Source of the DNA: Perkinsus olseni
Lineage: Eukaryota
Direction: 5' to 3'
NCBI GenBank assembly: GCA_013115125.1
Contig: JABANN010000062.1
Span: 1 to 64,000, forward strand
Length of the DNA: 64,000 nt
Shown here: one piece after another, positions 9,426 through 33,189 of the stretch
Position numbering within the stretch: position 1 is the stretch's first letter
Layout: each line of letters begins with the position of its first letter
The notes under the pieces: generated by a model
What the model was told of the DNA's origin: nothing
The model's input: the letters and a program-made list of their open reading frames with translations, nothing else
The model's database searches: none
Translations under genes and position numbers: made by a program

Positions 9426-11009
9426 TTAGCTGCTCCAGAAACCCAATAACCACCAGTAGCCGAAGCCAATGCTGATGAGCTCAACGAAATTGACACAGAG
9501 GACCACAAATCCACAGCCCCACCACTGCTTGTTGGTGACATATCCCAATCCAAAGAAGGCTGGATTAGGAGCAGAAGTATAGGGTGTCAGATTGCCTGAC
9601 CAAGTGCAAGTTGCCAAAGCACGGCATGCAACCTCAGGGTCAACACCAGCGGACAGAGCGATCTGAATGAAGGCTGGGTAAAGGGCCGAGACATGGGCTG
9701 TGATAGAGGCGAAGACGTATTGTGTAGCATAGAAGATCAGACATACGACCAAGAGGCATGCATAGGGAGGCAACGAGCTCAGATCTATGAGATCGGCTAG
9801 CCAGATCCAAAAGCCCTTGGCCTTCAACTCAGAAGCCAACATTACCAGTACAGAGAACCACAGCAACAAATTGAAGGCCCCCTTGTTACTGATGACGTTG
9901 TCTTTAATAGTAATCACTCCACACAGTAACATCACCGATACACCCATCGCCGCAACTTCGGTACTCGAGAAGGGGAAGATAGACTTGACCGTAGACGATA
10001 AGATCCACAACAAAACCACACCAAGGAAGACAGCAAGCATTGTGATCTCCAACGGCTTCATACGGCCCATCTCTTTCAACTGGTCCTCTGCGACCTTCTT
10101 TGCCTCAGGAGTTTTCTTGATCTCTGGCTTCAATAGGAAGTACATCTCGATCGGCACTAAAGCTAATACAATGATGCCAACAGGAGCTTGTGAGGCTGCA
10201 AAAGATACCCAGGAAAGATGCACCCCGACGTCCTCCATGAAAGTAACCATCATCGCATTCCAGGCCCCACCAGTAAGCCAGCAGGGAGCAGCCAAAGCGT
10301 TAGCGGTGATCTCTACCATTACAATGTAAGTTCCTATGCGATTCTGGGTACCCATTTCAGGATCCGACTGGAAGGCATCTCTCGCTAGTGGATGTAAGAT
10401 TAGTAACATCACACCAGCTCCTCGTGCTGTGCAAGAGGGTATTGCCAAGGCCAGTATAAGCTCACAGATACAAATACCATAACCCAGGCCTATGGTCGTT
10501 GACCCGACGTACTTGAGAACGATGAAGCACATGCGCTTGCCCAAACCAGTGGTGACGAAACCAGCGGATATAAAGTAAGCGAAGATAATAAGCCACACAG
10601 AAGAGTTAGAGAAGCCCGACAACATCTCGGCCGTGGTCAGTACTCCTGTTACAGAGCAAATACCAATTGCCACTATACACACACCGGCAAGGGGTAAGGG
10701 CTCCAAAACAGCAGCGATGATAGTGCAAAGGAAGACGATGAAGAGGTCCCATGTGTTGGAGCCAAGTCCCGGCGGAACTATCCACCACAGTATCAAGCCT
10801 ACGATGAAGATACCAGCGATCTTTGGGATGTTGGCCCCCGGCCAGACGTTTTGATGCCAATCCCGCAGCTGTTGCCATCTAGTCTTGAAGGCACCTTTGT
10901 GACCCTTCGAGTCAGCAAACTTGGTAGACGACGGTGAGGACTCGACGACCTCATCCTCGGACAGAGGTAACTTGTTGGACTCGACTTCCTTGACCACTGC
11001 CGTTGGCAT
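9426..11009 (-). CDS. DASS-family (CitT/DiT-like) di/tricarboxylate transporter, copy 1 (intronless)
   Basis: Uninterrupted ORF of ~527 aa from first ATG at 11009, many TM segments, LSGFSNSSVWLI, TGLGKR, IPSCTARGAG, PEIKKTP, FASITAH, LTPY..PAFFGLGYV..WW. Confidence 0.93.
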   Translation of the reverse strand: MPTAVVKEVESNKLPLSEDEVVESSPSSTKFADSKGHKGAFKTRWQQLRDWHQNVWPGANIPKIAGIFIVGLILWWIVPPGLGSNTWDLFIVFLCTIIAAVLEPLPLAGVCIVAIGICSVTGVLTTAEMLSGFSNSSVWLIIFAYFISAGFVTTGLGKRMCFIVLKYVGSTTIGLGYGICICELILALAIPSCTARGAGVMLLILHPLARDAFQSDPEMGTQNRIGTYIVMVEITANALAAPCWLTGGAWNAMMVTFMEDVGVHLSWVSFAASQAPVGIIVLALVPIEMYFLLKPEIKKTPEAKKVAEDQLKEMGRMKPLEITMLAVFLGVVLLWILSSTVKSIFPFSSTEVAAMGVSVMLLCGVITIKDNVISNKGAFNLLLWFSVLVMLASELKAKGFWIWLADLIDLSSLPPYACLLVVCLIFYATQYVFASITAHVSALYPAFIQIALSAGVDPEVACRALATCTWSGNLTPYTSAPNPAFFGLGYVTNKQWWGCGFVVLCVNFVELISIGFGYWWLLGFWSS

Positions 11010-11769
11010 TACCTCCAATTCGGAAAAATGAAATTAAAGCTGAGTACAAGGCCCCAGATCTGTACCAGCCTTCCTATCATATATTAGCGCATGTAAAAGA
11101 GAAATCGCTAGATACTATACGTGAAGGCCGCAAGCTCCATAGCACAACAATAATCCAATTCGCCCCTTCTTGCTCGCCTCAGTGCGAGTCTTCAGCCCCG
11201 CCAAGATGCACTTTCCGGTGCCTCCCGCTCGGGTCACTGCTGCTCCGAGTTATCCCCATCATCGCTAACCCCACTCGCATTGTCATTACCCGGTAATCGT
11301 GCCATCTTGGCGTCTATGCAGTGCCCTTCCTCAAAAGTTCCAAGATCATCGTGCAAGCACAGCGCTGCACCCAAGGCTACACAATACCGCCAATGGCTCC
11401 GTACGACACAATTCGGCACTGACTGGGACCCATCGAGACATCCTGACTTGCATTCTCAGGGCTCCCCGGTAGGGAGCTCGACCCGGCCTGTGAGACTACC
11501 ACCGGTCAGTTTCCACGCCACGTTGTGTCTATGGTCCACGCTCGTATACCCCTTCTCTCCCTGTCACAGAACACAACCAGAAATTACCCGGGAAAAGTCG
11601 TACGCAAATAATAAAACTCTAGAATCAATACTCAGAGTGTCAAACTCGAAACCACTTCCGTTCACTTACATCGGAAAGAAGAAAACTTTGGCCTCCATAA
11701 AACGCGAAGAGAGAGCGCTTGGGTTCAACGTGACCACAGAGTTAGAACCCAATAAGCGAAGCGCTGCTA

Positions 11770-13299: not shown

Positions 13300-13592
13300 G
13301 AGTCACGGAGTGAAAAAATACGCTGCCGCTGACGCCAATTTGCGTAGAGAAATTAGCGCTCGCCCGGTTCTTAACGCGCCACGTCGCACCATCCGTCCTC
13401 GTCGAGGATGTGACAGTCAGCCCTGGACGCAAAAATCGGCGTCAGAATTATGCTTATTATCCCCCTTCCGCGAATGCTGTAGCAACCAAACACGGGGAAG
13501 TAAGAACAGTAATATCATTAAGGATTCGAGTGATGAGAAAAAATACTAACCCTGTGACATCGTAATCGTAGTGACACATGAAACAAGTCTTC

Positions 13593-16500
13593 TCAAGCGC
13601 AAGTCTTCTTGTGAACCTTCCAGTCCTGTCGCTGACACTTGACGTAGCAGTAATAAACATTCTTGCATCTAGAGCACAGCAAGGTGCCCGCCCCGCCGCA
13701 AGTTTGACAGCGACGCTTGTCCCTCGCAGGACCACCAGCACTTGTGGTAGCAGAAGGAACATTTCTCACGAGCGCTGGATTCTGAGGGCTACTTCACGGA
13801 GATATGTGGCTCAGCTTCGTCAAGGGTGAGTAGAGCGGGAACAACACTATAGGACTGAAATAGGACATACCTCGAGGGGACGTCGGCAGCCGGCTGCCAC
13901 CGAGCCAGGTTAACCAGAACTTCTGAGCCCTCTTGCAGTTCCGGCCATGATGTTCATCAGAGCCACAGACGCACTTGGGTGTACCAGAAAGTCCCCGAGT
14001 GACCCTGGCTAGTTCTGCCGCCGCCGGTAGGTACTGATCTCTCCACAGAGAAGCTTCACCGGAGCTCGGATCCAAAGATTCCGGCCGGATCTGCAGCGGG
14101 AGCGAGCCGAAGATTTCTGTGTTGGCTTTCTTCATAACCTCTTCCGTCAGGACACAAGCAGCGCCGTTGACGAGTAGCCCGTACGTCCAATCATAACGGA
14201 CCTCAGCCGATAGGAGAACCAGCACATCCGCTGACCCATCCTTGGCACGTAAGAGCACAGGGCCTCGACCGCCCCAGTACTTACCATGCACTCTGTCTCC
14301 CAGTACACGAGAATGACCATACTGAGCATTCAAGGTGTCCCGCAACTTGTACATTCCACATGCCTGACTAGCTCGAATCGGCAGGGGAATCGACCGGCTG
14401 TAGAGATCGAGGTTGAGCCAGCCGCCGGGCGACGACAAAGACCCCAACACTTCATCTGAAGCTCGCGGAAGAGGTCCTAAGTGACCGTCGGGAGACCCAT
14501 CAAGGATAGCCCGGGGGAGAGGCGTGTCCCTGCTCAATGGAGAGCACTGAGCTACCGGGATGGAAACGTCGAGGGTTCCACTCGTGCGACCGACCTTGAC
14601 GACAATGTCATCCAGAGAGACTGCAACTGGTAGGAACAGCGTGGCCACCTTAACGGCGTTGGCGGTAATGACGACCGCCCATGGCTGGTCCGGCAGCAGC
14701 TTCACATCAACCTTCTCGCGACGTTCCAAGGCGGCTCTCCTTTTCTCATCATTCACCTTCATGACGAAGTGCACAGTACCATTGCGTAGGCGCTCACGAG
14801 TGGGAAAGGTCAACCCCTCTTCGGATTCACTAGGGGCCTCCTGTTTTACAGGAGACCTGCCGTTAGCTCTCGAAGCACCATCAGGGACGGTTGTGATAGT
14901 AGCAGGGACCTCAATCAAGTCGCCAGCGCTATTACGCATGGACTTTAATGGAAGCAGCCTTACTAAAGCCGTTCCTATTTTCAGATCGTCCGGGACTAGA
15001 AGTCTGAACCCGTCCTTACTGACGCTGCAAACTGGAAAATTGACCACCTTGTCCGTGGTCGAATGGAGAACAGCCTCAGGGATCCTCACGTCCGGAAGCA
15101 TAGAGCTCTTCAAGTCAGTATTACGTTCCGATGGGCACTTACTGTCGGATACCAGGTGTACTTCCCGAAAGAATACTGAGTGGACGATAGACCGTGAAGG
15201 GGTAGCAGAGACTTCACCGCCGGCGTCAACAACCGGGCGTTCCCAGCTTGTGCGACCTCGGCAAGTAGACCGCACAGCTCCCCCACATCAACAAGGGAGC
15301 CCGAGGTGGCGAGCATATCCAAGAAACGCACCCAGGTCGAAATCCCGCAAGGCGAATCACGAATGGAGCGAGAACATCCACCAATGAAGTTCACGATGGC
15401 TGCCTTCAACTCTATGGACTGGCCGATGCTTATCTTCTCGAAGGTCGACTGGCACCGTCGCCATCGGACTGGTGTAGCGCCAAACATGCCAGGACTGAGT
15501 ATGGCAGCAGAGATGCTAACCGTTGACTGCGGGTATGCCGTCCACAGCCTGCTGAGATCACTCCTCGCAGCACTGTCGCAGGAGTTCTCCGCGTGCATGA
15601 AGTCCACCTGGAGTCCACAGGCGAGAGGGATCAACCACAGCGGCACCTCGCATAAGTGTCGCCGAAACAAGTCCTCATAACTATCTCCTTTCGGACTCAT
15701 CAAGTCTGTCGCCAACGTCGCTCGGCCGTTGTCACTCCGGTCAGCCAGAAGAGGACCGGCGGCAACCAACAGAGGCAAAAACATCGAATAGTCGGCAAGG
15801 TTCGAAGTGTCAATGATGTCAAATTTATGAGGGGCTTTAGCCCTTCCCAGATCCCTCGCTAGCTCTTCCACTTTTGGAACCTCACTCGGTAGCCAAGCCC
15901 GTGGCTGAGCAAGGAGTGCATCACAAAGGGCGAAAGCATCTCCGCAATTGAGCACAATTCGATGATCGACAACGCCATTCAAGGCAGCCACTAGAGCCGC
16001 AGACCGTTGACCAAAGAGCTCGAAGGCCCACTGCAAAGGAGTCGCGCCCTTTCCTTCGGGAGCCCTTATATACCGAGCCTTCGAGAAATGTGTTTCCTGC
16101 ATAAACTTCCTCAAGTTCCCGGGAATGCACATGTAGGGATTCATGTACACCTGGACACGCCAAACCTTAGCAATGGTCTCGGTCGTAGCACTTGTCGAGA
16201 GCGCGGTCTCGATAGCACGACGGAACTGGCAGGTATCCGCGAAGAAGGTGGGGTTGACGACAGTCCGACAAGCCCCTTTAGCCGGGGACAACGCGGAATC
16301 CCCATCGCTTGATGAGACCGAGGAAACACCAGCATAGCCAACTTCCCGATAGGAATGGACGTAGTTTTCGAAGGTCTTATCACCGTTGAATTGTGCAGCA
16401 GCAATCATGTCAGGCCACATGACGAGCATCTCGCCTTCTGTCGAGCCTCGCAAAAACCCACCGGTCTTCTTGAACCACGAAAGACGCACATTTTGATCCT

Positions 16501-17065
16501 TGCGTGCTACGTCATCACCGACACAATCGTCTTTCACTAGGGCACTCCACCACTCAAGAATGTCAACGACGGCTTGCCGGTCACCAGTGAGGGAGAGAGA
16601 TCTCCCGCTGCTCCGCTCGGACTTGAGGTGCTCAAGGATCCTAGCTACCGCCTTGGATAGGAGGGTCGAACACTGAGGCGTGATAAAGACAGAGTAAACC
16701 ACCTCCCAGGCCACGGTCACCGTCTTGGTGGAGAGCTCGGCACCAGCAGAGCTCAACAGTTCTAAGTAGACCAACGATCAAGCGATGACCGCAGGTTCCA
16801 CATCACAGCAGACTGCGTGGATAGGCGTATCCTGCCATGCTGCATCGGAGCCACAGGTCTTCGAAACCTGGTTAAGATACAGGGTGTGGGCCACTGACGA
16901 CAGATCACTGCAGCCCAGTAGCAATGCACGGGTAGGCAGAGACTTGCCAGCACCACGGGAACTCGCACAGAGGTCTCTGAGTGGGGTGTTGGCGAAGGGG
17001 TAGTAGTAGGTCCAGTTGCTGACAGTCGGGTCCAGCGGTGGGCAGCTGAGGGCGGTGGGGGCCAT
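13593..17065 (-). pseudogene. DUF4470-domain + C-terminal MYND zinc-finger gene with two in-frame TGA codons (pseudogene or recoded)
   Basis: N-terminus YYYPFANTP..LLLGCSDL..CCDVEPAVIA*SLVYL (DUF4470-like); FDIIDTSNLADY; probable 35-nt intron 15108-15142 (GTAAGT..CTGAC..AAG) joins the two long ORFs in phase; after the TGA at 13794-13796 the same frame continues to CQTCGGAGTLLCSRCKNVYYCYVKCQRQDWKVHKKTCA* (MYND, stop 13593-13595). Confidence 0.8.
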
Positions 17066-18190
17066 CGTGGCGAGGGAAAACTAAAGAGAATGGCGCCTCT
17101 AGTGAAAAAGCGATGGAACAAGGCGAGTAACTTGAGACGTTCTGGTCGGCCGTTATTATTGATAGGAAATGGACTGATGAAGTACATAGCCGTCATACGA
17201 ATGGTTCACATCATCTTCAACTGCGTGTCATTTCAGTAATTCAGGAGTCAAAATAACCAAAGCGACTTTCTTTGTGGGTGTTAGTGATTGACCAAGAGGA
17301 CGAACAACCAGGAACGCGATGCTACCAACGCGAGTCTAGCGGGACGCTAGCCAACCACAGCAGTGAAGGACGCAGATGGACTGAGAGCCTCAAGTCAGTG
17401 AGGCTCCTCAACGCCGCATGACAGTTTGCAAACTGGTCTGGTAGCGTGACATAGTACACAACCGGGACTGGCCGATTAGATTGCTCCGAGCAGAAGGCGA
17501 AGATCGCAACCCGAGGATTCCCTATAAATTCCTCGTACAAGTTGCTCAAGTTTGGAGTTCTCGCGTGCCCTCCGATGAGTCAGAAGCAGCCACGATACGA
17601 TCTCTTAACACGGTTCAACTGCTTTTACTGATGCGCCGGTACCGCTCAAGTTCAAATCCGGCCGCCAAAATCAACGGTCACCTGAGTGGGATCCACTAAC
17701 CCCCTCAGACGAGCGACGTACTAGGCTAGTAAACTCTGGCTCCACTCCTAAGCTTTGCCCCTCCCCCTACGTCCCAGAACTCTCCCAATTAACACAACCC
17801 CCTGATGCACTAAATTAGAAACTGTCTTTTCAGACTATGTGAAAGGCAGAAACGAACACGTAGCCGCACTTCTAGCGACTACTGATAATTCACATCGACG
17901 TTAAGAAGATCTCGGTCTTTGAATAGAGTAGTTGCGCATGAGCGACAACAAGACCGGTCTATCGTACGTAAACAGATAGCATGCGCCTCGAGCCAGTGAA
18001 ACCACCGGCTGAGGACTTATAACAACAGCGAATAACAAGTACAAGCGTAGATAGCCAAGCTGTGACAGACAGGCTTTTACAGCCAAGCATCCTTCAGTTG
18101 GTTATGGGATAGCGCCAAATAAATATCACATCTTGATAATACTCTACCTAATTTCTCACTAGACTGATGATAGCCAACATATGCTGTTGC

Positions 18191-19756
18191 TTACCAGAAG
18201 CCAAGCAACCACCAATAACCCCAGCACACCGTGTTCATGACAACTATGTTCACAACCATCACGATGACACCTTGGAACCACCAGAGCTTCAATGGGACGT
18301 ACCCGAGGTTGAAGAAAGGCGGATTGGTGGAGCTCGTGTAGTGAGTTAGATGTCCAGATAGAGTAGTATAAGCAAGGGCTCTGCATCCAAGCTCCATAGG
18401 AACACCAGCTGCCTGCATGATCTGCAGGAAGACTGGGAACATAGCGGACACATGGGCAGTGATACTTGCGAAAAGATACTGCGACACGTAGAAGATAGCC
18501 GTGCAAATCCATACGCTTCCGTAAGCCGCCACACTCGACAAATCGATTTTCTCGGCAAACCACTCAAAGAAGCCGGTCTCCTTCAGCTCGGTGGCCAACA
18601 TCAGCAAGACGCCGAACCAAAGGAACAAATCCCAAGCTCCGCTGTTGTTCACAATATCCCTCTTCACATCGAGAATACCAGTCATGAGCAGCACACTAAG
18701 GCCTAGCATAGCCACACCAGTAGTCGTATAGGGCACACTATCAACCGAGGAAGATACGATCCAGAGGATGATGATCAGAGCGAAAACACCAAGCATGACG
18801 ATCTCAAAGGCACTAATGCGTCCCATCTCGTTCAACTTCTCGTTGGCCAACTTCTTAGCCTGGGGAGTTTTCTTGATCTGGGGAGGGAAGAGGAAGTACA
18901 GGATGATAGGAGCATAGATCAACGGCAAAACACCAACCGGCGCCATACTGTAGGCCCACTGACCCCAATTGATCTTCACGCCAACTGCTTCCATGAAGTT
19001 GGCCATCATAGCATTCCAGGCACCACCCGTCAACCAGCACACAGAGGAGGTGGTATTGGCAACGATCTCGACCATAATCATGTACATGCCAATAGACTTC
19101 TCTGTACCCAACGCGGGATCGGATTGGAAACCTTCCTTGAGCAGAGGCTCCAAGATCGGCAGTAGGATACCCGCACCTCTTGCAGTGGACGAGGGAATTG
19201 CCATAGCCAAGATGAACTCGCAAATACAGAAAGCATAAGCGAGTCCAAGAGTGGTCGAGCCGATGTACTTTAGAATAATGAAACATAACCGCTTGCCCAA
19301 ACCGGTGGTGACGAAACCGCTTGCAATGAAGCATGCGAAGACAATCAACCATACGGTATCGTTACCGAATCCGGACAGAATCTGCGCAGTTGTCAGAATA
19401 TTAGTTAATGTACAGAAACCCAACGCGACCAGGCAAATACCGGACATCGGGATGGGCTCTGTAACAGCACCAATGATAGTGACCAAGAACGTGACGAAGA
19501 CTTGCCATGTATGGGGACTCAGATCACTTGGATTAGCCCACCATAGGGCCAAGATGAGGATAATCAACATCAGCAATATGGGGAGGTTGATACCGGGCCA
19601 CTTGTTCTTGTGCCAATCAAGGAACTTCCTGACAACGCTTCCACCAGGGACCTTGTCCCATTTTGAAGGAACCACCTTCTCCTCAACAGCAGGCGATTTA
19701 CTCTCAGTCAAAGGAAGCACTGGTTGATCGGCCACCGGCGCAGACTCAGCGGACAT
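18191..19756 (-). CDS. DASS-family transporter, copy 3 (intronless)
   Basis: 521-aa ORF; LSGFGNDTVW, IPSSTARGAG, FASITAH, YTTLSGHLTHY. Confidence 0.93.
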   Translation of the reverse strand: MSAESAPVADQPVLPLTESKSPAVEEKVVPSKWDKVPGGSVVRKFLDWHKNKWPGINLPILLMLIILILALWWANPSDLSPHTWQVFVTFLVTIIGAVTEPIPMSGICLVALGFCTLTNILTTAQILSGFGNDTVWLIVFACFIASGFVTTGLGKRLCFIILKYIGSTTLGLAYAFCICEFILAMAIPSSTARGAGILLPILEPLLKEGFQSDPALGTEKSIGMYMIMVEIVANTTSSVCWLTGGAWNAMMANFMEAVGVKINWGQWAYSMAPVGVLPLIYAPIILYFLFPPQIKKTPQAKKLANEKLNEMGRISAFEIVMLGVFALIIILWIVSSSVDSVPYTTTGVAMLGLSVLLMTGILDVKRDIVNNSGAWDLFLWFGVLLMLATELKETGFFEWFAEKIDLSSVAAYGSVWICTAIFYVSQYLFASITAHVSAMFPVFLQIMQAAGVPMELGCRALAYTTLSGHLTHYTSSTNPPFFNLGYVPLKLWWFQGVIVMVVNIVVMNTVCWGYWWLLGFW

Positions 19757-21249: not shown

Positions 21250-22821
21250 TTACCAGAACCCAAGCAACCACCAATATCCCCAACATACTGTGTTAAGGAC
21301 GATCAAGTTGATGATCATGACGATCAAACCTTGTAGCCACCAACGACCCATGGGTACGTACTTCAAGTTGAAGTAAGGTGGATTGGTAGAACTTGTGTAC
21401 TGGGTAAGATGACCAGATAAAGTAGTGTACGCAAGTGCACGCGCGCCTAGCTGCATTGGTACTCCAGCTCTCTGCATAATCTGCAGGAAGACTGGGAACA
21501 TAGCGGACACATGGGCAGTGATACTTGCAAAGAGGTACTGTGATATATAAAAGATTGCAGTGCAAATCCATACACTGAGATACGCGGGAACACTCGACAA
21601 ATCAATTAGCGTAGCAAACCACTCAAAGAAGCCGGTTTCCTTCAACTCGGTGGCCAACATCAGCAAGACACCGAACCAAAGGAACAAATCCCAGGCCCCC
21701 TTGTTGGCGACAATATCCTTCTTCACATCGAGAATACCGGTCATAAGCAGGACGCTCAAACCGAGAATGGCCACACCAGTAGTGCTATACGGCACGAAGG
21801 CGATAGAAGAAGAGACAATCCACAGGATAATAACCATGAGGAACACCAGAGCCATGACAGCTTCGAAAACTCCGATGCGACCCATCTCGGCCAATTTGTC
21901 ATTGGCCAACTGCTTGGCCTCTGGAGTCTTCTTGATCTCCGGGGGGTATAGGAAGAACAGTACAATGGGACCATAGATCAAAGGGAGAATCCCCGGGGGT
22001 GCCATACTATAAGCCCACTGACCCCAACTGAGATGCACTCCTACATCTGTCATGAAGTTGGCCATCATAGCATTCCAAGCGCCACCCGTTAACCAGCACA
22101 CAGAAGAGGTGGTATTGGCAACAATCTCGACCATAATCATGTACGAGCCGATTCTTCTTTCAGTTCCCAACGCGGGATCGGATTGGAAACCTTCCTTAAG
22201 AAGAGGTTCTATGATAGGTAGAAGGATACCTGCACCTCTTGCAGTGGACGAGGGAATTGCCATAGCCAAGATGAACTCGCAAATACAGAAAGCATAAGCG
22301 AGTCCAAGAGTGGTCGAGCCGATGTACTTTAGAATAATGAAACATAACCGCTTGCCCAAACCGGTGGTGACGAAACCGCTTGCAATGAAGCATGCGAAGA
22401 CAATCAACCATACGGTATCGTTACCGAATCCGGACAGAATCTGATCGGTCGTCAGAATATTGGTTACCGTGCAGAATCCTAGCGACACCAGGCAAATACC
22501 AGACATCGGAAGAGGTTCTGTGACAGCACCAATAATAGTGACCAAGAACGTAACGAACACCTGCCAAGTGTGGATGCCCAAACCGCTGGGTGGTATCCAC
22601 CAGAGAACCAGAACGATAATGACCAAGATAAGAAATGTGGGTATCTTGATACCCGGCCACTTGTTCTTCTCCCAATCATTGAACTTTCTCAGGTAAGTAA
22701 TGCCTGGGATCTTATCGATGGTTCTCTTCCAGAGGGACGGTGGCTTCACCTCCTTAGCGGGACTGTCGGATTCGGATAAAGGCAAAGTCGGCTCTTCAGA
22801 TTTAATGGAAAGGCTCGGCAT
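21250..22821 (-). CDS. DASS-family transporter, copy 4 (intronless)
   Basis: 523-aa ORF; same motifs as copy 3, its closest paralogue. Confidence 0.93.
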   Translation of the reverse strand: MPSLSIKSEEPTLPLSESDSPAKEVKPPSLWKRTIDKIPGITYLRKFNDWEKNKWPGIKIPTFLILVIIVLVLWWIPPSGLGIHTWQVFVTFLVTIIGAVTEPLPMSGICLVSLGFCTVTNILTTDQILSGFGNDTVWLIVFACFIASGFVTTGLGKRLCFIILKYIGSTTLGLAYAFCICEFILAMAIPSSTARGAGILLPIIEPLLKEGFQSDPALGTERRIGSYMIMVEIVANTTSSVCWLTGGAWNAMMANFMTDVGVHLSWGQWAYSMAPPGILPLIYGPIVLFFLYPPEIKKTPEAKQLANDKLAEMGRIGVFEAVMALVFLMVIILWIVSSSIAFVPYSTTGVAILGLSVLLMTGILDVKKDIVANKGAWDLFLWFGVLLMLATELKETGFFEWFATLIDLSSVPAYLSVWICTAIFYISQYLFASITAHVSAMFPVFLQIMQRAGVPMQLGARALAYTTLSGHLTQYTSSTNPPYFNLKYVPMGRWWLQGLIVMIINLIVLNTVCWGYWWLLGFW

Positions 22822-23855
22822 TGTCGAGGTAAAAAGAAAGAACTTGAACTAACGAACACGAAGTTAAGTCTTCCTGCACGATCTAGGGACAGACAAAACC
22901 GACCGGGCGATACGTAAGTAAGCGAGTGCTGCTACCGAGTCAGCTAACAGTGCTAGCAAAGTACACAAAGCTTAGTGTCCCCGAATCTGGGGCTCGGATC
23001 CGTCCTGCGTGAACATCGCGCGCGCCCGAAAATTCAGCCGTATCGCACGCAGTGGAGTCGTACCGGCGCTCTCGGGAGACCTCACTAACGCACACGCAAG
23101 CGTAGTCGAGTCTTCGACGACACCAAGAGAACCCCTATTCAGGTCACGACTCCCGACAGACAGTATTTGACCATACACCTTCTGAGTGCCAAGCAGGTAG
23201 AAAAAGAGAAGAACTTACACTCATGTTCGCACTGTGCAAAGCACGAGCCAACAAGACGCATGGAAACAGCATGGCCTCAGAATCTTCATGGTTAGTCACT
23301 TGTTCTAGGACACGGTACCAATAGCACTATCCCGATCGTCACGCCATTCCCAACAACACTACAACAACACAACACATGAGAGTAAATGAAGTGTAATAGT
23401 CACCTCTAATGACGTGCACTGAACGGTACTAACCTGAACAGTATCACGCCATTAATGCTTTACAAACCTTCAACTTGTACGACAGCAGGTAAGAGAAGGA
23501 TCGTCAAAGAACCTATTTACGGAAACAATCGTAGCTGACCAACAAGTGACAGGGAATGCATTCCTAGTCATAGTTGTTAAGGTACATCTGTACGGTGGTT
23601 TCACAATGCTGGATAACCAGCAACTAAAGAAGATACATTACACAACCGGATTCTCAAGCACGAGAGTTGTTAGTCACGTTATCCAGTAGTAGTAGAAGAA
23701 GAAGGAACAGTAGAAGAAGAAGGAACAGTAGAAGAAGAGACAGTGTTGTAAGAATAGTGCGATACACTATGATTGAGAGAAGACGAAAGAATCGTCTGGT
23801 CCCAGATATATAGTAATGATACGGGTTGAAAGTCTAGTATTCGGTACTAACCAGT

Positions 23856-25409
23856 TTACCAGAAACCCAGGAGCCACCAGTAACCCCAGCCAACAGTGTT
23901 AATGTAGATGACGTTAACGATCATCACACAAACACCTTGCCACAACCACCTCGACAGCTTAACGTAGCCCATAATGTAGTATGGGGGGTTAGAGGAGGAT
24001 GTATAATGAGTCAAATGCCCGGAAAGTGTCGTGTATGCTAAAGCACGGCAGCCGAGTTCCATAGGAACACCGGCATGCTGCATGATCTCGAGGAACAAAG
24101 AGAACATAGCAGAAACATGAGCAGTAATGGACGCGAAGAGGTACTGAGAGACATAGAAAATGAAAGTGCAAATCCACACAGCCGCGTAAGGGGGCAAAGA
24201 CGAGAGATCGATCTTGATAGCGAGCCATTGGAAGAAACCAGTATCCTTAAGCTGGGTGGCGATCATAAGAAGGACACCGAACCACAGGAAAAGATCCCAG
24301 GCAGAGCTGTTCTGAGCAATATCTTTCTTAACATCAATGATGCCAAGAAGAAGCAGCATGGACACACCCAAGATGGCGACACCAGTGGTACTGTAGGGCA
24401 CGTAAGCAATCATAGAAGATACAATCCACAAGATGATAATGCCGATGAAGACGCAAAGCATTGCGATCTCCTGCTTGGACATGCTACCCATTTCGGCGAG
24501 CTTCTCATTGGCAATGCTCTTGGCCTGAGGAGTTCTCTTGATCTCCGGGGGCATGATGCAGAAGACAACCAAAGGAGCATAGATAAGGGTGATGATACCC
24601 AAAGGGGCCATGCTGTAAGCCCAGCCACCCCAACCAATGTTCACACCGACATCAGCGCAGAACTTGGCCATCATAGCGTTCCAAGCACCTCCTGTGAGCC
24701 AGCAAACAGAGGAAGAGGTATTGGCGACGATCTCGTTCATGACGAGGTAAGTACCGATCCTCTTCTCAGTACCCTTGGCAGGATCAGAGCCGAAACCTTC
24801 CTTCAACAAAGGCGTAATAATAGGCAACAGAATACCGGCTGCACGGGCAGTTGAAGAAGGAATGGCAATAGCCAAGACGAACTCGCACAAGCAGAAACCG
24901 TAGGCAAGACCAAGAGTGGTAGATCCAAGATACTTCAGAATGATGAAGCAGATTCTCTTACCCAAACCACTTGTCACGAAACCACTGGCAATGAAGAATG
25001 CCATAACGACTAGCCACACGGTATCGTTACCGAATCCGGAAAGGACCTGGTCTGTTGACAGAATACTAGTAACAGTACAGAAACCCAAACCCACAATGCA
25101 ACTGGCAGACATGGGAAGGGGCTCCAGAACAGCACCGAGAATGATGACCAAGAAAGCAACGAACACTTGCCAAGTATGCGGCTCCAAATCAGAGGGATGG
25201 ACCCACCATAATGCTAGGGCGATGATAGCAAGGAGGATGAAGATAGGGATGTTGATACCCTTCCACTCATGCTCTTGCCAGTACTCCCATCTCTCCCACA
25301 TTTGACCCACTTTCGAGCCTTTGATCTTGTCCGACCACCGAGTAGTCCATTTCACGGGCTTCTCTTCGTGTACGTCCGACTCATAGACAGGGAGGTCTAC
25401 CTCGGACAT
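23856..25409 (-). CDS. DASS-family transporter, copy 5 (intronless)
   Basis: ORF from first ATG at 25409; GFGNDTVW, IPSSTARAAG, FASITAH, YTTLSGHLTHY. Confidence 0.93.
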   Translation of the reverse strand: MSEVDLPVYESDVHEEKPVKWTTRWSDKIKGSKVGQMWERWEYWQEHEWKGINIPIFILLAIIALALWWVHPSDLEPHTWQVFVAFLVIILGAVLEPLPMSASCIVGLGFCTVTSILSTDQVLSGFGNDTVWLVVMAFFIASGFVTSGLGKRICFIILKYLGSTTLGLAYGFCLCEFVLAIAIPSSTARAAGILLPIITPLLKEGFGSDPAKGTEKRIGTYLVMNEIVANTSSSVCWLTGGAWNAMMAKFCADVGVNIGWGGWAYSMAPLGIITLIYAPLVVFCIMPPEIKRTPQAKSIANEKLAEMGSMSKQEIAMLCVFIGIIILWIVSSMIAYVPYSTTGVAILGVSMLLLLGIIDVKKDIAQNSSAWDLFLWFGVLLMIATQLKDTGFFQWLAIKIDLSSLPPYAAVWICTFIFYVSQYLFASITAHVSAMFSLFLEIMQHAGVPMELGCRALAYTTLSGHLTHYTSSSNPPYYIMGYVKLSRWLWQGVCVMIVNVIYINTVGWGYWWLLGFW

Positions 25410-26817: not shown

Positions 26818-28524
26818 TCAATGCTTCCAGTAGCCAAGAAGCCACCAGTAGCCGAAGCTTACAGATATGAGCAAAACAAAATTGACACACAGCACAGCTA
26901 TGCCTGTAACCCACCACTGCTTGTTAGTGACATAACCCATGCCAAAGTATGCCGGATTGGCCGCCGAGGTATAGGGAGTCAAATGCCCCGACCAAGTACA
27001 CAGGGCCAGGGCGCGACAAGCAACCTGCGGCGGCACTCCAGCGGCCAAGGCCACTTGCAACAGAGCGGGGTACAGAGCCGATACGTGTGCTGTGATAGAG
27101 GCGAAGACATACTGGGTTACATAGAAAATCAAGCACACAACGAGAAGGCAAGCATACGGAGGAAGGGAGCTGAGGTCGATGAGGTCGGCCAACCAAACCC
27201 AGAAACCCTTGTTCTTCAACTCCGAGGCGAGCATGAGGAGGACTGAGAACCACAACAATAGGTTGAAGGCACCCTTATCAGTGATGATGTGTTTCTTGAC
27301 ATCGATGATACCACATAATAAGAGTACACCAACACCCATAGCGGCAACACCGGTAGATGTGAAGGGGAATATGTTCTTGACAATTGATGACAAGATCCAC
27401 AGTAAAACCATACCGATGAAGACCACGAGCATCGTAAGCTCCCTAGGCCCCATGGGGCCCATCTCCTCCAGCTTCTTTGTGGCCAGTTTTGGTGCCTCAG
27501 GAGTCTTCTTGACTTCGGGAGGGTAGAGAAAGTAGACTGTTAACGGAATACAGGCCAACTGTATGAGGCCGGCGGGCGCTTGGGAATATGCCCAGCCGAC
27601 CCAAGAGAGGTTCACACCAACGTCGTTCATGAACTGAACCATCATCGCATTCCAAGCGCCACCAGTGAGCCAGAAGGCAGCGGCGACAGCATCAGCGCTG
27701 ATCTCAACCAGAACGATGTAGGTCCCGATACGTCCTTGGGTCCCCAACTCGGGGTCCGATTGGAACGCTTCTTTCATGAGGGGGTGGAGGATAGGTAACA
27801 GGACACCAGCAGCTCTAGCAGTGCACGACGGGATGGCCAAGGAGAGGACTAGCTCGCAGAGACAGATACCATAACCAAGACCGAGAGTCGTGGAGCCCAC
27901 ATACTTGAGCACCATGAAGCACATACGCTTACCAAGGCCAGTGGCAGCGAAGCCGCTCGAAAAGAAGAAAGCAAACATGACGAGCCACACCGAACTGTTA
28001 GCAAAGCCCGATAGCATCTCCTTGGTGGTGAGAACACCAGTGACGGCGCAAACACCGAGACTGACCAAGCATACGCCGGCCAAAGGTAACGGTTCCGCGA
28101 CAGCAGCAACAATCGTGCAGACGAAGAGCACAAACACTTGCCACGTATCATGACCAAGTCCCTCGGGTACCAGCCACCACAGGATTAATCCAAGAGCGAA
28201 GATGGCCGCGACCTTCGGTATGCTCGCACCAGGCCATACATTCTCATGCCACTCCTTCAGCTGTAACCACTTGCGCTTAATCCCAGTAGGGGGCTCAGCA
28301 GGCTCCTTAGGGGCATCAGTGGTCATGGGCAAGACCTCGGTCGCATCACTAACGGTCTGCTTCTTGCGCCAGAAGCGCAGCCGGTCCCACTTCCCTCGGC
28401 TGATCGTGTTCGCTTCAGCTCTCGTATCAACCGAGCTCTCGTTCGCGGAAGAATCCGTTACAGGGCTGACCAAAGGCGCGGGCGCGTTTCCTTGCGGCGG
28501 CAGTACTTCACAAGCTCCACTCAT
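26818..28524 (-). CDS. DASS-family transporter, copy 6 (intronless, long N-terminal tail)
   Basis: ORF from first ATG at 28524; GFANSSVW, IPSCTARAAG, FASITAH; most similar to copy 1. Confidence 0.93.
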   Translation of the reverse strand: MSGACEVLPPQGNAPAPLVSPVTDSSANESSVDTRAEANTISRGKWDRLRFWRKKQTVSDATEVLPMTTDAPKEPAEPPTGIKRKWLQLKEWHENVWPGASIPKVAAIFALGLILWWLVPEGLGHDTWQVFVLFVCTIVAAVAEPLPLAGVCLVSLGVCAVTGVLTTKEMLSGFANSSVWLVMFAFFFSSGFAATGLGKRMCFMVLKYVGSTTLGLGYGICLCELVLSLAIPSCTARAAGVLLPILHPLMKEAFQSDPELGTQGRIGTYIVLVEISADAVAAAFWLTGGAWNAMMVQFMNDVGVNLSWVGWAYSQAPAGLIQLACIPLTVYFLYPPEVKKTPEAPKLATKKLEEMGPMGPRELTMLVVFIGMVLLWILSSIVKNIFPFTSTGVAAMGVGVLLLCGIIDVKKHIITDKGAFNLLLWFSVLLMLASELKNKGFWVWLADLIDLSSLPPYACLLVVCLIFYVTQYVFASITAHVSALYPALLQVALAAGVPPQVACRALALCTWSGHLTPYTSAANPAYFGMGYVTNKQWWVTGIAVLCVNFVLLISVSFGYWWLLGYWKH

Positions 28525-29702
28525 GACGAGGACCAAAAAGGGGTATCAAATGGACCGACGGTAGACGATAAGCACGTCACAAAACTCGGACGTTGGAGCG
28601 AATCGATAAAAAAGCTACAGCGACTCCTCCCGAGGACCGCTCCGCCTCATCGTACATTTTGACGGTCGGGGACAGATGACACAAAAGTCCATGATACGCC
28701 GGCTTGGGAGTCTTACAGCCTGTAAGTCTTCAAGCCTTAAGCCTGTAGGCCTGTAAGTCACAGGAGTTAATTGCGAACAACAGGATCCAGCATGTGGTTC
28801 TCAACAGTGATACCAGAGGGACTCCCGCGTCTTGCGAATCAAATTTTTACGTGACGCGCTCGGAAGCCTATTAAAATTCAGAGCTACCGTGGAAGGACCA
28901 TCGATGCTGGCTAGGAAACAAACACAGAAACACAGACAATTGAAGACTCTCTCGCATGGCACCCAATACTGTGCAAGTGGTCCCTTTCAATCTCTTCTGC
29001 TCCGGTATCGGTATATCCACTGTACCCACCCAAAGCATCGCTAACTCGACGCTCCCGTCCCTTGGCTGCAGAAAACCGGACCATTGAGCGACCATGTGTA
29101 TCCCGGAGTGAACAACGTCCTACACAGTGGGCATGGCTTGCAGTGCAACCATGACTACAGTCAATCGTGATTAGCCAAGCCACCTCGCTCAATGGAACCT
29201 GCCCGCGGGTGGTAGAGGGTGGGAAAAAAAGAATCGGACAGTCTCAGATACAACTAGCAATCGAATGAAGTAAACAGGTATCGTAACCACTACTCTTAGA
29301 CCTAGTTAGTAACGAGGAATGCAGGCACGTGCCGTAACATCATCATGATCACGAACACCATCATCATCATAGCCATCGTCATCATAACCAACTATCAGCC
29401 TGCCCTTGCACTCTTGCAATTCCTCCATTACCCTCGCGCCGATCTTGAACTCTCAAGCAAGGGTCCTTGCTTTTCCAATCAACTACATGGGCGTCTGCCA
29501 CAGCACAAAATTAAAAATATTCCATGGCTGCGATGCACAACTCAACACACTGGCAAAACAGAAATCACGGGCCGGAGAAGACGCTGCATTCACTCGAAGG
29601 AGCTTCGATAAAAACGAAGCGAACTGAAGTGGTTCACGAATCTACAGAGGTAGCACATGCTGATACCTTCGGCATCGTTACTAAAGGCAGTAAAACCGCT
29701 GG

Positions 29703-31325
29703 CTACTTCCAATACCCTAGAATCCACCAGTACCCGAACCCCACGGTAATCAGAATAATATAATTTACAACCATGACGACGATGCCCACCAACCACCAGC
29801 GCTTCGACGTCACGTAGCCGAGACCGTAGTAGGCTGGGTTCGAGGTACAGCCATAAGGAGTTATGTGCCCGGCCCAAGTGCACACCGCCAAAGCACGGCA
29901 GGCCACTTCAACTGGTACACCGGCACTCACACTGATCTGGACAAAGGCCGGGTAAAGGGCAGCCACTCGAGCTGTGATAGATGCGAAAGCATATTGGGAT
30001 AGGGTGAAAAGGAGACAGATGACACAAAGACAAGGGTAAGGCGGCAAAGAACGGAGATTGATCTTGCCGGATAGCCAGCTCCAAAAGCCGGCTTTTTCGA
30101 GTTGAGCCGCATACATAACGATCACAGCGAACCATATAAGTAAGTCAAAGGCACCACTGTCTGATACGATATCTCGCTTAACATCTATAACGCCTAGCAT
30201 AAGGAGGGCGGCAACTCCCAGCGTGGCCACTTCCGTGGCTGTGAGTGTAAAGATGGCAGGGAGCGATGACGACAATACCCATAACAAAATGATGAGAATG
30301 AAAACTATCAGCAGCGCTTTTTCTGGTAAGACCATCCGACCAATTTGCCTTAGTCGCTCTTCGGCGGCAGTGCGCGCTTCAGGAGTTCGTACGATCTCAG
30401 GACGACAAAGTGCAAAAATGAGAAGCGGCACAGCCGCCAAAGCGACCAAAACCACCGGAGCCAACGAGTAGGCCCAACCAAGCCAAGTGAGTTCCACGCC
30501 AGCATCGGCCATGAACTTGACCATCAGGGCATTCCAAGCACCAGCCGTGAGCCAACAGATCGCTGACATGGACGTGGCAGCATTCTGCACCATGACAAGG
30601 TAAATGCCGATCCGCCTCTGCGTCCCCATGGCTGGATCTGATTGGAAAGCTTCCTTAAGGAGAGGCTCTATTATAGGGAGGAGTATGCCCACAGCTTTGG
30701 CGGCGGCTGAGGGAATCCCGAGGCCTAGCACCACTCCACAGATACAGATGCCGTACGCCAAGCCGATGGTAGTTGAGCCGAGATACTTGAATACGATGAA
30801 GCAAATACGCCTACCAAGATCTGTAGCGACGAAGGCGGATGAAATAAAGAACGCAAATATGACAAGCCACACCGCTGCGTCAGCGAAGCCTGATAGGACT
30901 TGGTCCTCAGTGAGCGCTCCAGTTAAGGTGGCCAAGGCGATGCTGATCAAGCACACGCCCGTCAAGGGCAGTGGCTGAAAAACAGCGCCGACAATCGTAC
31001 AGAAGAAGACGACAAAAGTGTGCCAAACCTGAGGGCTCAGGCCAGAGGGGACAAGCCACCACAAGACGAGACCAAGAGCCAGAATGAGAAGGGCTACCGG
31101 AATGTGAATACCCGGCCAAACGTCTCTATGCCACCTTCTTGCGCTAGACCAGAAGCGAAACTCTCGCACGTTCGTCGGGGAGTCGAGAGCATCTCCCGTT
31201 GGCTTGTTTTCAGGCGGACATGCCCCACCTTCGGCACCTTCGAGGTAAGAGGCCCGAGGAGGGGTTGTGGAGATACTGATCGACTCTTTGGCCGACTGAG
31301 GAAGACCTTCTTCGGATGAACTCAT
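29703..31325 (-). CDS. DASS-family transporter, copy 7 (intronless, divergent substrate loops)
   Basis: 540-aa ORF; GFADAAVW, TDLGRR, IPSAAAKAVG, FASITARV. Confidence 0.92.
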   Translation of the reverse strand: MSSSEEGLPQSAKESISISTTPPRASYLEGAEGGACPPENKPTGDALDSPTNVREFRFWSSARRWHRDVWPGIHIPVALLILALGLVLWWLVPSGLSPQVWHTFVVFFCTIVGAVFQPLPLTGVCLISIALATLTGALTEDQVLSGFADAAVWLVIFAFFISSAFVATDLGRRICFIVFKYLGSTTIGLAYGICICGVVLGLGIPSAAAKAVGILLPIIEPLLKEAFQSDPAMGTQRRIGIYLVMVQNAATSMSAICWLTAGAWNALMVKFMADAGVELTWLGWAYSLAPVVLVALAAVPLLIFALCRPEIVRTPEARTAAEERLRQIGRMVLPEKALLIVFILIILLWVLSSSLPAIFTLTATEVATLGVAALLMLGVIDVKRDIVSDSGAFDLLIWFAVIVMYAAQLEKAGFWSWLSGKINLRSLPPYPCLCVICLLFTLSQYAFASITARVAALYPAFVQISVSAGVPVEVACRALAVCTWAGHITPYGCTSNPAYYGLGYVTSKRWWLVGIVVMVVNYIILITVGFGYWWILGYWK

Positions 31326-31495
31326 ACCCCCTGATGGGCTCTAGAGACAGAACTGCTACACTGCCTTGACTCATTACTAAACCAAACTCCCAAGTCGCGG
31401 TATGAAATTCGTTATGATCGTTGGAAGAAAGCAGTGGAGACTTATGGCCATGAAGACCAGCCACTCAAAGCAGTGGTACAGCAAGAATATATTCT

Positions 31496-33076
31496 TCATG
31501 ACTTCCAGTAACCCAATATCCACCAGAAGCCGAAGCCCACCGACATCAGCAGACACATGTTGACCACGAAAAGGACAACACCGAGCAACCACCACTCGCC
31601 AGTCTTGACGTATCCCATTGCGAAGAGGGGCGGGTTGGAGGAGGAAGTGTACGGAGTCAGGTGGCCAGACAACGTCGTGTAGGCCAGAGCACGGCAGCCC
31701 ATCTCCATCGGCACACCAGCCTGTTGCATGATGGATAGGAAGACCGGGAAGAGGGCCGACACATGAGCGGTGATAGAGGCGAAGGCATATTGTGTAGCGT
31801 AGAAAATGAAGGTAATCAGAATGGTAACAGGGACAGGAGACATCCCAGAGAGGTTGATCAGAGAGGCAAACCAGTCGAAGAATCCCTTCTCCTTGAGTTG
31901 AGTCGCCAGCATCAATAATACACCAAACCATATCAGCAGATCGAAGGCTCCCTGGTTACTAACAATGTCGTCTTTAACGTTTATGATACCCAGAAGCAAT
32001 AGACACGCCACTCCGACAGAGGCCACAGCAGCTGTGGAGAAGGGAAAGATGTCCTTGAGCATAGACGACAGAATCCAAAGCAGCACAACAAAGATGAAGA
32101 CTATCGTCATTTGTATTTCCCCGGCCGACATCGAACCCATCTCCTTCAACTTGTTCTCAGCGATACTCCTCGCCTCCGGCGTTTTCTTGATCTCAGGTGG
32201 GAAGATCAGGAAGATGACCAAAGGCGCGACGGCAAGGGGAAAGATGCCAACAGGAGCCATACTGTAGGCCCATTCAACCCACCCCACATTAACGCCCTCA
32301 TGCAGCATGAACTTGGCCATCAGAGCATTCCAAGCCCCACCAGTGAGCCAACTTATCGAGGAGATAGCGTTGGCAGCGGCCTCTACCAGGACCAGGTACT
32401 TTCCTATCAACTTCTCGGTGCCTTGCTTGGGCGTAGAACTGAAGCCTTCCTCCAATAAAGGCTGGAGGATCGGCAACATAATGCCGGCCGCTCGAGCCGT
32501 TGACGATGGTATGGCGATCGCCAGGATCAGCTCACAGAGGCAGAAACCGTAGGCCAGACCAAGGGTCGTTGTGCCCACCAACTTCAATACGTAGAAGCAG
32601 ATACGCTTGCCCAGGCCAGTAGAGACGAAGCCACTAGATATGAAGAAGGCGAAGACGATCAGCCAAACCGTGTCGTTGCCGAAGCCCGAGAGCATCTCCG
32701 CCGTAGTGAGGGTTTGAGTGAGGGCGATGATGGCGAGCATGACCAGGCACACGCCCGACATTGGCAGAGGCTCCATAATGGCTCCTAGAATGGTGACCAA
32801 GAAGAGAACAAAGATATGCCAAGTCTTTGGAGGGAGGCCCGATGGTACCACCCACCAGAGGGCCAAGGCGACCGCTACTAGAAGTAAGCACTCGAAAAGG
32901 TTAGCACCACGCCATTGTGTCTTATGCCAATACCACACCTTCTCGAACACATTCTTCTTTTTGGGTATACCGGTCTGCGGAGCTGGTAAAGCATCAACAT
33001 CAATACTAGACATAGATCTTCCACCCGAAGGACGACGCTCCTCCTTCGCAACAGTCGACGGACGACGGAAAGCCAT
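31496..33076 (-). CDS. DASS-family transporter, copy 8 (intronless)
   Basis: 526-aa ORF; GFGNDTVW, IPSSTARAAG, FASITAH, YTTLSGHLTPY. Confidence 0.93.
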   Translation of the reverse strand: MAFRRPSTVAKEERRPSGGRSMSSIDVDALPAPQTGIPKKKNVFEKVWYWHKTQWRGANLFECLLLVAVALALWWVVPSGLPPKTWHIFVLFLVTILGAIMEPLPMSGVCLVMLAIIALTQTLTTAEMLSGFGNDTVWLIVFAFFISSGFVSTGLGKRICFYVLKLVGTTTLGLAYGFCLCELILAIAIPSSTARAAGIMLPILQPLLEEGFSSTPKQGTEKLIGKYLVLVEAAANAISSISWLTGGAWNALMAKFMLHEGVNVGWVEWAYSMAPVGIFPLAVAPLVIFLIFPPEIKKTPEARSIAENKLKEMGSMSAGEIQMTIVFIFVVLLWILSSMLKDIFPFSTAAVASVGVACLLLLGIINVKDDIVSNQGAFDLLIWFGVLLMLATQLKEKGFFDWFASLINLSGMSPVPVTILITFIFYATQYAFASITAHVSALFPVFLSIMQQAGVPMEMGCRALAYTTLSGHLTPYTSSSNPPLFAMGYVKTGEWWLLGVVLFVVNMCLLMSVGFGFWWILGYWKS

Positions 33077-33189
33077 TGTCAGCAGCTTCTACGGCCAGAA
33101 CTACCAAAACCCACTATCACCCCCAGAACCAGGCACAAGCCGGCACCATAGAAACCTCACATGCAGTAAAGGAAATAATACAAACAACA

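Follow-up and report, generated by a model that had tools for sequence, protein, structure and literature searches.

Carriers of the exchanger branch of the DASS superfamily (DASS-E) are described from bacteria, as LaINDY of Lactobacillus acidophilus (PDB 6wu1, 6wtw) and the CitT/TtdT antiporters, and from chloroplasts, as DiT1 and DiT2.1 (PDB 9mcr, 9mcu). LaINDY is the model for sodium-independent elevator exchange, and the hallmark of the branch is that each of the two sodium sites is taken by a fixed, positively charged side chain, Arg159 (held by Glu146) and His392, with His401 nearby (Sauer et al., PMC7553777). In the DASS-C branch (VcINDY, SLC13/NaDC/NaCT, INDY), which belongs to the same superfamily and has the same fold, SNT motifs and bound sodium are reported instead of the Arg/His stand-ins (PMC7553777). 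Here, eight genes assigned to DASS-E are described from Perkinsus olseni, on a stretch of 64,000 nucleotides (positions 1 to 64,000 of contig JABANN010000062.1; hereafter, the window). Oysters and clams are hosts to Perkinsus species, which rank among their major parasites and whose carbon exchange with the host is poorly understood.

The reading preferred here, to which a probability of roughly 0.8 is given, is that the eight copies are DASS-E proteins descended from an old myzozoan gene of bacterial type, multiplied in tandem, held under constraint, transcribed, and presumably acting as carboxylate exchangers. One ancestral gene was already carried by the ancestor that Perkinsus shares with Chromera and Alphamonas; tandem duplication produced two subfamilies from it before the known species of Perkinsus diverged, and purifying selection has maintained the copies. 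Six copies or more are transcribed; c3 and c4 receive the Perkinsus spliced leader (SL) some 30 nt ahead of the ATG, and c5 is polyadenylated. By homology to LaINDY and DiT, each protein would be a homodimeric elevator-type carrier performing a sodium-free swap of di- or tricarboxylates (such as malate, succinate, or 2-oxoglutarate), and the paralogues may differ in substrate, in membrane, or in expression level and so share out the work, as is suggested by their family.

The copies are eight ATG-to-stop open reading frames (ORFs) of 1530–1707 bp (509–568 aa), all on the minus strand within positions 9426–33076. They are the longest ORFs of the window, the exon of a MutS-like gene excepted, and are named c1 to c8 in order of rising window position:

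9426..11009, minus strand: c1, 527 aa, subfamily A; PF00939 E 3.6e-109, TIGR00785 298.8 bits
11770..13299, minus strand: c2, 509 aa, subfamily A; PF00939 E 2.8e-105, hairpin motif IPANSAR
18191..19756, minus strand: c3, 521 aa, subfamily B; PF00939 E 8e-115
21250..22821, minus strand: c4, 523 aa, subfamily B; PF00939 E 2.7e-114
23856..25409, minus strand: c5, 517 aa, subfamily B; PF00939 E 7.9e-113
26818..28524, minus strand: c6, 568 aa, longest N-terminal tail, subfamily A; PF00939 E 5.9e-114
29703..31325, minus strand: c7, 540 aa, the most derived copy; PF00939 E 9.5e-108
31496..33076, minus strand: c8, 526 aa, subfamily B; PF00939 E 1.6e-120

Pfam family PF00939 (Na_sulph_symp) was matched by all eight from profile position 4–8 to 472 of 472, at 353–404 bits (cut-off 27) and with E values from 2.8e-105 to 1.6e-120. 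The NCBIfam model TIGR00785 ('dass') was passed by the three copies examined with it (c1, c3, and c7) at 299–319 bits, the cut-off being 198.6. The copies are colinear with the family model end to end, and there is therefore no room for an intron. Additional DASS fragments were not detected outside the eight ORFs when the window was searched by tblastn with four copies, as all 32 high-scoring pairs lay inside them.

The array of eight intact, intron-free ORFs claimed in an earlier note on this DNA was thus found as described, each copy running from ATG to stop with a full-length PF00939 match; the array is not contiguous, however, as a non-DASS gene at about 13.6–17.4 kb separates c2 from c3. 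The motifs quoted in that note (TGLGKR, IPSxTAR, FASxTAH, and others) are present in the alignment of the copies. Copy c7 reads TDLGRR where the other copies read TGLGKR.

A profile built from the eight copies was run against solved structures and matched 12 PDB sequences. The highest values were reached by chloroplast DiT1 and DiT2.1 (341.7 and 336.9 bits, respectively) and by two constructs of LaINDY (312.4 and 308.4 bits), whereas constructs of VcINDY yielded 41–47 bits and human and fly carriers of the SLC13 type (NaDC3, NaCT, INDY, SLC13A2) 24–31 bits. Because of this difference (308–342 against 24–47 bits), and because three of the four hallmark residues are present, all eight copies are assigned by sequence to DASS-E, with plastid DiT and LaINDY, and not to SLC13, in agreement with the earlier proposal. 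The predicted fold is settled by the full-length matches to solved structures, with E about 1e-100.

Hallmark sites were located through an alignment of c8 with LaINDY, in which the chain numbering is offset by 3 (confirmed on both residue pairs), and their columns were scored in a 141-row alignment with 126 other DASS-E representatives. The equivalent of Arg159 is R in seven copies and K in c7, with R in 125 of the 126 representatives; that of Glu146 is E in seven copies and G in c7, with D or E in 116 of 126; and that of His401 is H in seven copies and R in c7, with H in 94 of 126. At the His392 equivalent, Gln was found in all eight copies and in four of five other Perkinsus proteins. Alphamonas, Chromera, and 97 of the 126 representatives have His at this site, where Q, R, and M occur in six representatives each. 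Judged from the alignment, the replacement of His392 by Gln is a lineage-wide Perkinsus change at the fourth hallmark site. With K/G/Q/R at the key sites where the remaining copies read R/E/Q/H, c7 may differ in substrate or coupling.

The described systems resemble the Perkinsus copies to different degrees. DiT1 and DiT2.1, the best structure matches, share the hairpin motifs IPSxxAR and FASxxxH with their R and H stand-ins; they carry transit peptides and His392, whereas a leader of this kind is missing from the Perkinsus copies, in which Gln occupies the His392 site. LaINDY shares the equivalents of Arg159, Glu146, and His401 with seven of the eight copies and differs in being bacterial, in lacking an N-terminal tail, and in having His392 in place of Gln. 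The bacterial CitT/TtdT antiporters belong to the same DASS-E branch, and matches labelled 'L-tartrate/succinate antiporter' by JGI are 31–35% identical; the TtdT-like row P0065 is remote from the myzozoan clade in each of the four trees built with it, the E. coli reference not being among the rows.

An exhaustive profile search with the eight copies returned 5544 hits with E up to 1e-3. The best hits after Perkinsus were a protein of the colpodellid Alphamonas edax (473 bits), an unnamed protein of 473 aa (403 bits), and Cvel_1916 of Chromera velia (387 bits), followed by Prunus DiT1 (346 bits) and Vigna DiT2.1 (344 bits). In all five trees, Perkinsus, Alphamonas, and Chromera formed one clade, with the following support:

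FastTree, 141 rows: 99
IQ-TREE LG+C20 PMSF, quick mode, 62 rows: 99
IQ-TREE LG+G4, quick mode, 62 rows: 99
Quick tree with the bacteria nearest to Alphamonas and Chromera added (Bacillota and others, 41–47% identity), 63 rows: 100
Careful tree, 32 rows: 100/99 (ultrafast bootstrap UFBoot/SH-aLRT)

For the 141-row tree, only representatives of at least 440 aa from P0123–P0267 were taken, while the 62-, 63-, and 32-row trees were built from subsets hand-chosen to sample each subclade, with the long-branch P0125 excluded. As the three lineages form one clade in all five trees, the gene is older than Perkinsus and already existed in the ancestor that all three share.

The two relatives, Alphamonas EP00386_P007510 (EukProt) and Chromera Cvel_1916, are full-length DASS-E proteins of the same clade and, like the Perkinsus copies, have no hydrophobic leader. 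They differ in being only 38–46% identical to the copies and in keeping His at the His392 site, and both are uncharacterised. One DASS-E sequence each was retrieved for Alphamonas and Chromera, compared to at least eight in Perkinsus. A well-supported alveolate branch of DASS exchangers is thereby defined, so far comprising Perkinsus, Chromera, and Alphamonas; within this known transporter family, the Perkinsus genes show a sizeable lineage-specific expansion and one residue-level peculiarity.

Pairwise identity among the eight copies ranged from 50 to 82%. Subfamily B (c3, c4, c5, c8) was recovered with a support of 83–98, and with 82/68 in the careful tree, while the core of subfamily A (c1, c2, c6) reached 93–99. 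Copy c7 joined subfamily A at 82–93 in four trees and was unresolved under LG+G4. In the direction of the minus strand, the copies run B A A B B B, the non-DASS gene follows, and A A completes the array, so that the two interleaved subfamilies suggested earlier (c1/c2/c6/c7 and c3/c4/c5/c8) are supported by the trees as well as by the order along the DNA.

Copies c2, c3, and c8 are letter-identical to database proteins (c2 to P0347), and c2 is also 96% identical to a partial P. olseni protein. Named P. olseni proteins are also matched by c6 (FOZ60_015556, 99% identity) and by the last 400 aa of c1 (FOZ61_007283 and FOZ62_029340, 99.75%), and these identities mark the window as P. olseni DNA. 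In P. chesapeaki, the orthologues FOL47_003753, FOL47_003755, and FOL47_003757 are encoded together on a contig of 131 kb; the first shares 91% identity with c4, the second 85% with c5, and the third about 60% with subfamily A. A protein of P. marinus shares 89% identity with c8. Every protein from P. chesapeaki or P. marinus pairs with one window copy, and most duplications therefore predate speciation. The last 400 aa of c1 share 96% identity with one protein of P. chesapeaki and 97% with one of P. marinus, which makes c1 far more conserved between species than c4 (91%), c5 (85%), and c8 (89%).

Synonymous divergence (dS) was saturated or above 1.7 in 27 of the 28 copy pairs, for which the pairwise ratio of nonsynonymous to synonymous divergence (dN/dS) is uninformative. 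The one measurable pair, c3–c4, yielded a dN of 0.11, a dS of 0.78, and a dN/dS of 0.14. No foreign composition was seen, as the GC content of the copies, overall and at third codon positions (GC3), was like that of neighbouring exons, with GC3 values of 0.57–0.66 in the copies and 0.58–0.71 in six neighbouring exons. The proposed expansion and diversification of an ancestral gene is accordingly upheld by the identity range, the pairing between species, and the c3–c4 ratio, which mark it as old and under constraint. A ninth, very divergent paralogue, P0125 (P. olseni FOZ62_025601 and others; 514 aa), is located elsewhere in the genome; it is 31–35% identical to the copies, has Ser at the His392 site, and ends a branch of 1.54.

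RNA libraries were compared over window positions 13300–33299, a stretch containing c3–c8 (c1 and c2 lie outside it), in four runs, X1, X6, X22, and X24. X6 is RNA on record (metatranscriptomic, Logan contigs), and all 24 records placed were at least 99% alike. X1 is RNA by guess only; 66 records were placed, 61 of them at least 99% alike. It behaves as cDNA, because it shows SL loose ends, a poly(T) end, and a change in depth of more than 1000-fold, unlike a DNA library. Three transcript features were read from loose contig ends:

19786..19787, minus strand: SL acceptor AG of c3; the X1 loose end behind 19787 is the reverse complement of the SL 3' part, then adapter; about 30 nt upstream of the ATG
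22849..22850, minus strand: SL acceptor AG of c4; loose ends of X1 and X6 are the SL reverse complement; 28 nt upstream of the ATG, genomic ...cgtt ag|ttcaag
23383..23390, minus strand: poly(A) site of c5 mRNA; 23 T loose before 23383 (plus strand) in X1, X6 contig ending at 23390; 3' untranslated region of about 470 nt

Contigs of the RNA libraries cover all six copies in the stretch and are colinear over all six ORFs, so that a lack of expression of most copies, which the earlier note had held out as evidence against its proposal, was not what was observed. Copy c5 is spanned by a colinear, gapless X6 contig (23390–25433), c6 by an X1 contig (26616–29015, depth 37.4), c7 by an X1 contig (29231–31354, depth 114.7), and c8 by contigs of both X1 (31407–33069, depth 142) and X6 (31498–33090). 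The word depths were as follows:

c4: X1 about 5400–7200; X6 69–128
c5: X1 about 6000–7000; X6 337–386
c3: X1 200–357; X6 7–20
c8: X1 100–142; X6 6–8
c7: X1 115; X6 3.5–5.7
c6: X1 37; X6 1.9–2.9
Non-DASS gene inside the array: X1 30.6; X6 0–1
Intergenic bins: X1 5.6–10.5; X6 0–0.43

Between the 3' end of the c8 transcript contig and the 5' end of the c7 contig (31354–31407) lie about 52 nt. This short gap, the shared strand, and SL trans-splicing would fit read-through transcription resolved by trans-splicing. Same-strand copies, SL trans-splicing, and short gaps between transcripts are also reported for the tandem arrays of dinoflagellates (PMC2488372); the dinoflagellate arrays reportedly consist of near-identical repeats, whereas the Perkinsus copies are old and 50–82% identical. 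The sole joint in the stretch is an X1 contig that skips 152 nt, from 29078 to 29231, between the upstream region of c6 and the 3' end of c7, with non-canonical ends (GA..AA on the plus strand) and a shorter side of 30 nt; it may be a chimeric contig.

With regard to origin, three other accounts were weighed against descent from an old myzozoan gene. In a word-indexed search with c3, the named hits directly below those of Perkinsus came from bacteria and were 35–41% identical (Brenneria, Legionellales, Sodalis, Chlamydiota), the genes are without introns, and all named DASS-E proteins that the homologue searches found outside the alveolates and the green lineage were prokaryotic. These observations would agree with the entry of a bacterial CitT/DiT-type gene into the Perkinsus lineage itself, followed by expansion there. 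Such a transfer is nevertheless highly improbable: Alphamonas and Chromera stand next to Perkinsus in the exhaustive search and, with a support of 99–100, in the five trees; the composition is native; and the expansion is older than the divergence between P. olseni, P. chesapeaki, and P. marinus. The word-indexed search missed Alphamonas, Chromera, and the plant DiTs, all of which were found by the exhaustive search. The suggestion of a laterally acquired gene in Perkinsus is therefore not supported, its nearest relatives outside the genus being Alphamonas edax and Chromera velia, and being intron-free and bacteria-like is insufficient to call lateral transfer here. Of the grouping with intron-containing alveolate orthologues, named in the earlier note as contrary evidence, the half that concerns grouping was found, in five trees. 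None of the five trees joined the green-lineage DiT1/DiT2 proteins (Prunus, Vigna, Tetraselmis, and rows resembling marine green picoplankton) to the myzozoan clade. The two mixture-model trees that resolve their position united them in one clade with one Chlamydiota protein (support 97 in the 62-row tree, 98/93 in the careful 32-row tree), while in the FastTree tree green DiT was one clade with no Chlamydiota sister, and under LG+G4 DiT1 and DiT2 fell apart. The careful tree placed the myzozoan clade with proteins of metagenome-assembled genomes (MAGs) labelled Legionellales and Rickettsiales and with three unnamed proteins, at 97/97, a sister relation that collapsed under LG+G4. When the myzozoan and green proteins were held together, the 62-row tree was 3.12 log-likelihood units better than the quick free tree (approximately unbiased test, p-AU 0.578) and the 32-row tree 19.04 units worse (p-AU 0.067), so a joint clade was not rejected. 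Together with the rank of DiT1 and DiT2.1 as best PDB matches, and with a nearest Atlas cluster that is a mostly Streptophyta family (score 0.97), this non-rejection speaks for one eukaryotic origin shared with plastid DiT, through the plastid or through 'green' gene transfer, with the carriers serving a relic plastid. We regard that account as unlikely, given the separate position of green DiT in every tree, its Chlamydiota partner in two of them, the bacterial neighbours of the myzozoan clade in the careful tree, and the lack of a hydrophobic N-terminal leader, by a crude hydropathy scan, in the eight copies, Alphamonas, and Chromera. Dinoflagellate DiT2 is treated by Tyra et al. as a separate transfer, which, as far as that treatment goes, argues against simple inheritance through a red-derived plastid (PMC2246286). 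For the deeper origin, bacterial sisters are tentatively favoured over a union with green plastid DiT. A fuller version would combine the parts: myzozoan DASS-E derived from an intracellular bacterium of the Legionellales/Rickettsiales kind, independently of a chlamydia-like green DiT, multiplied at least eightfold in Perkinsus, its charge balance shifted by replacement of the Na2-surrogate His with Gln, and with the abundant c4 and c5 as the main route of carboxylate trade with the host. This combination is put forward tentatively and is itself rather improbable as a whole. To our knowledge, bivalve hosts have the SLC13 type only; if the combined account were true, the DASS-E family would be a parasite-specific target.

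Two further alternatives concern how the founder arose and how the carriers work. A founder reverse-transcribed from an SL-bearing mRNA would explain the intron-free copies. According to PMC3101222, retroposition is postulated for dinoflagellate genomes, and certain genes of P. marinus are preceded by SL exons; c3 and c4 are SL trans-spliced today. Taking the Perkinsus SL from the primer table of the same paper, 400 nt upstream of each ATG were scanned with its 16-nt 3' part at up to four mismatches, and no relic was found in seven of the eight copies; the sole SL-like match, at −260 of c8, has four mismatches and lies inside the MutS-like ORF. Likewise, no run of at least seven A was present within 700 nt downstream of any copy. 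Over the whole window, a 15-nt SL pattern with up to three mismatches gave five matches against 2.2 expected, and five were reached in 9 of 100 shuffles. An exact copy of the 16-nt SL 3' part was found abutting an ATG at 54505–54525 (plus strand), with no following GT of an SL RNA gene and with an ORF that stops after 37 codons. It looks like the footprint of a retroposed SL-bearing mRNA, which counts for the retrogene account as a relic within the window, and it indicates that the scan was able to find relics. The retroposed ancestor of the earlier note is hence not backed by any convincing SL relic or A-run at the eight copies, although none would be expected after this divergence: dS is saturated, so such marks would be erased and an old retroposition could still have occurred. 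A retrogene origin is nonetheless quite unlikely, because 32 of 104 surveyed Perkinsus genes are intron-free anyway and an intron-free ancestor of bacterial type explains the state equally well. As for coupling, Gln in place of the Na2-surrogate His might mean that the proteins are not strict exchangers of divalent anions and instead handle monovalent carboxylates, act as uniporters, or have a proton link. The uniform Gln in the eight copies, with His kept in Alphamonas and Chromera, and the further changes of c7 (Arg159 to K, Glu146 to G, His401 to R) lend this some weight, as does the charge-compensation model, which, as set out by Sauer et al., rests on two fixed positive charges (PMC7553777). 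Set against the variability of this site within DASS-E and the retention of His401 and Arg159 in seven of eight copies, altered coupling appears doubtful.

Descent from an old myzozoan DASS-E gene, with tandem multiplication and continued expression, is therefore retained, and several points weigh against it. The trees are unrooted (midpoint only), the 62-row trees were run in quick mode only, and the alveolates found outside Perkinsus number just two, one of which is represented by a transcriptome. The substrate, the direction of transport, and the membrane are predictions, and with Gln at the Na2-surrogate His site in all eight copies strict sodium-independent exchange is not assured. Expression coverage is limited to c3–c8, since c1 and c2 lie outside the 20-kb stretch, and the raw-read RNA runs X22 and X24 placed no reads with about 4 and 6 in 100 sampled, respectively, which makes them uninformative. 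Contig word depth, whose rank order was the same in X1 and X6, is a poor measure of expression, and c6 in X6 is barely above the intergenic bins. No joint was seen inside the six ORFs, the stretch holding no confirmed intron as a positive control.

A hydrophobic N-terminal leader was seen in none of the eight copies, nor in Alphamonas or Chromera, by a crude Kyte–Doolittle scan in which no dedicated predictor was used. In all eight copies, the first hydrophobic 15-aa window is the core transmembrane helix TM1, at residues 38–100. The N-terminal tails are hydrophilic and measure 37–99 aa in the copies and 115 aa in Chromera. Since all eight lack such a leader, a plasma-membrane location or a signal-anchored internal one would be likelier than classical import into a relic plastid; polytopic envelope proteins, however, can lack a classical leader. 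An exchange of succinate or malate with the host, as envisaged earlier, is a conjecture.

Public annotation gives the Perkinsus genes no name beyond 'hypothetical protein' or 'sodium/sulfate symporter', and no paper on them was found in the literature, paper supplements, which might list them, being outside the scope of the search. The P. marinus EST (expressed sequence tag) paper makes no mention of dicarboxylate, sulfate, or citrate, and the main text of the P. marinus mitochondrial complexome paper mentions no DASS or dicarboxylate carrier.

For the neighbouring genes, 219 ORF pieces of at least 75 aa from the flanks and the c2–c3 gap were scanned against Pfam. A transaldolase (PF00923), at about 40.9–41.7 kb, is split over two frames, with profile positions 105–146 and 145–283, and a gt...ag intron of about 57 nt lies roughly at 41456–41400. 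In the same scan, an SNF2 match was split over three pieces and a PP2C match over two. Long exons occur among the neighbours too, as in the MutS-like gene (634 aa) and in the gene inside the array (ORFs of 497 and 555 aa). In the survey of Zhang et al., as reported in PMC3101222, 72 of 104 Perkinsus genes had introns and 32 had none. Because of this proportion, and because the exons of the neighbours are also long, the intron-free state of the array is unremarkable for Perkinsus, and eight intron-free paralogues are one event, not eight. Of the contrast with intron-rich flanks drawn in the earlier note, the part that stands is that flanking genes are split by introns, but the contrast is weaker than presented. 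Two neighbours lie next to or between the copies:

33193..35094, minus strand: MutS domain V protein adjoining c8; Pfam MutS_V, otherwise only a weak AAA_23 match
13619..17382, minus strand: non-DASS gene inside the array; one colinear X1 contig of 3764 nt

The C-terminal stretch of the MutS-like protein (33193–35094) resembles a GIY-YIG nuclease motif of the kind seen in MSH1 of plant organelles. The gene inside the array consists of three overlapping ORFs in different frames (16765–17205, 15113–16777, and 13797–15287), and its sole Pfam match is DUF4470 at 16781–17080. Its frame-spread coding could reflect unspliced RNA, DNA background, a pseudogene, or frameshifts. Finally, sequence near-identical to window positions 23800–33200 was present in 20 of the 24 public runs listed; these belong to 11 studies, and most bear a second coded organism label.

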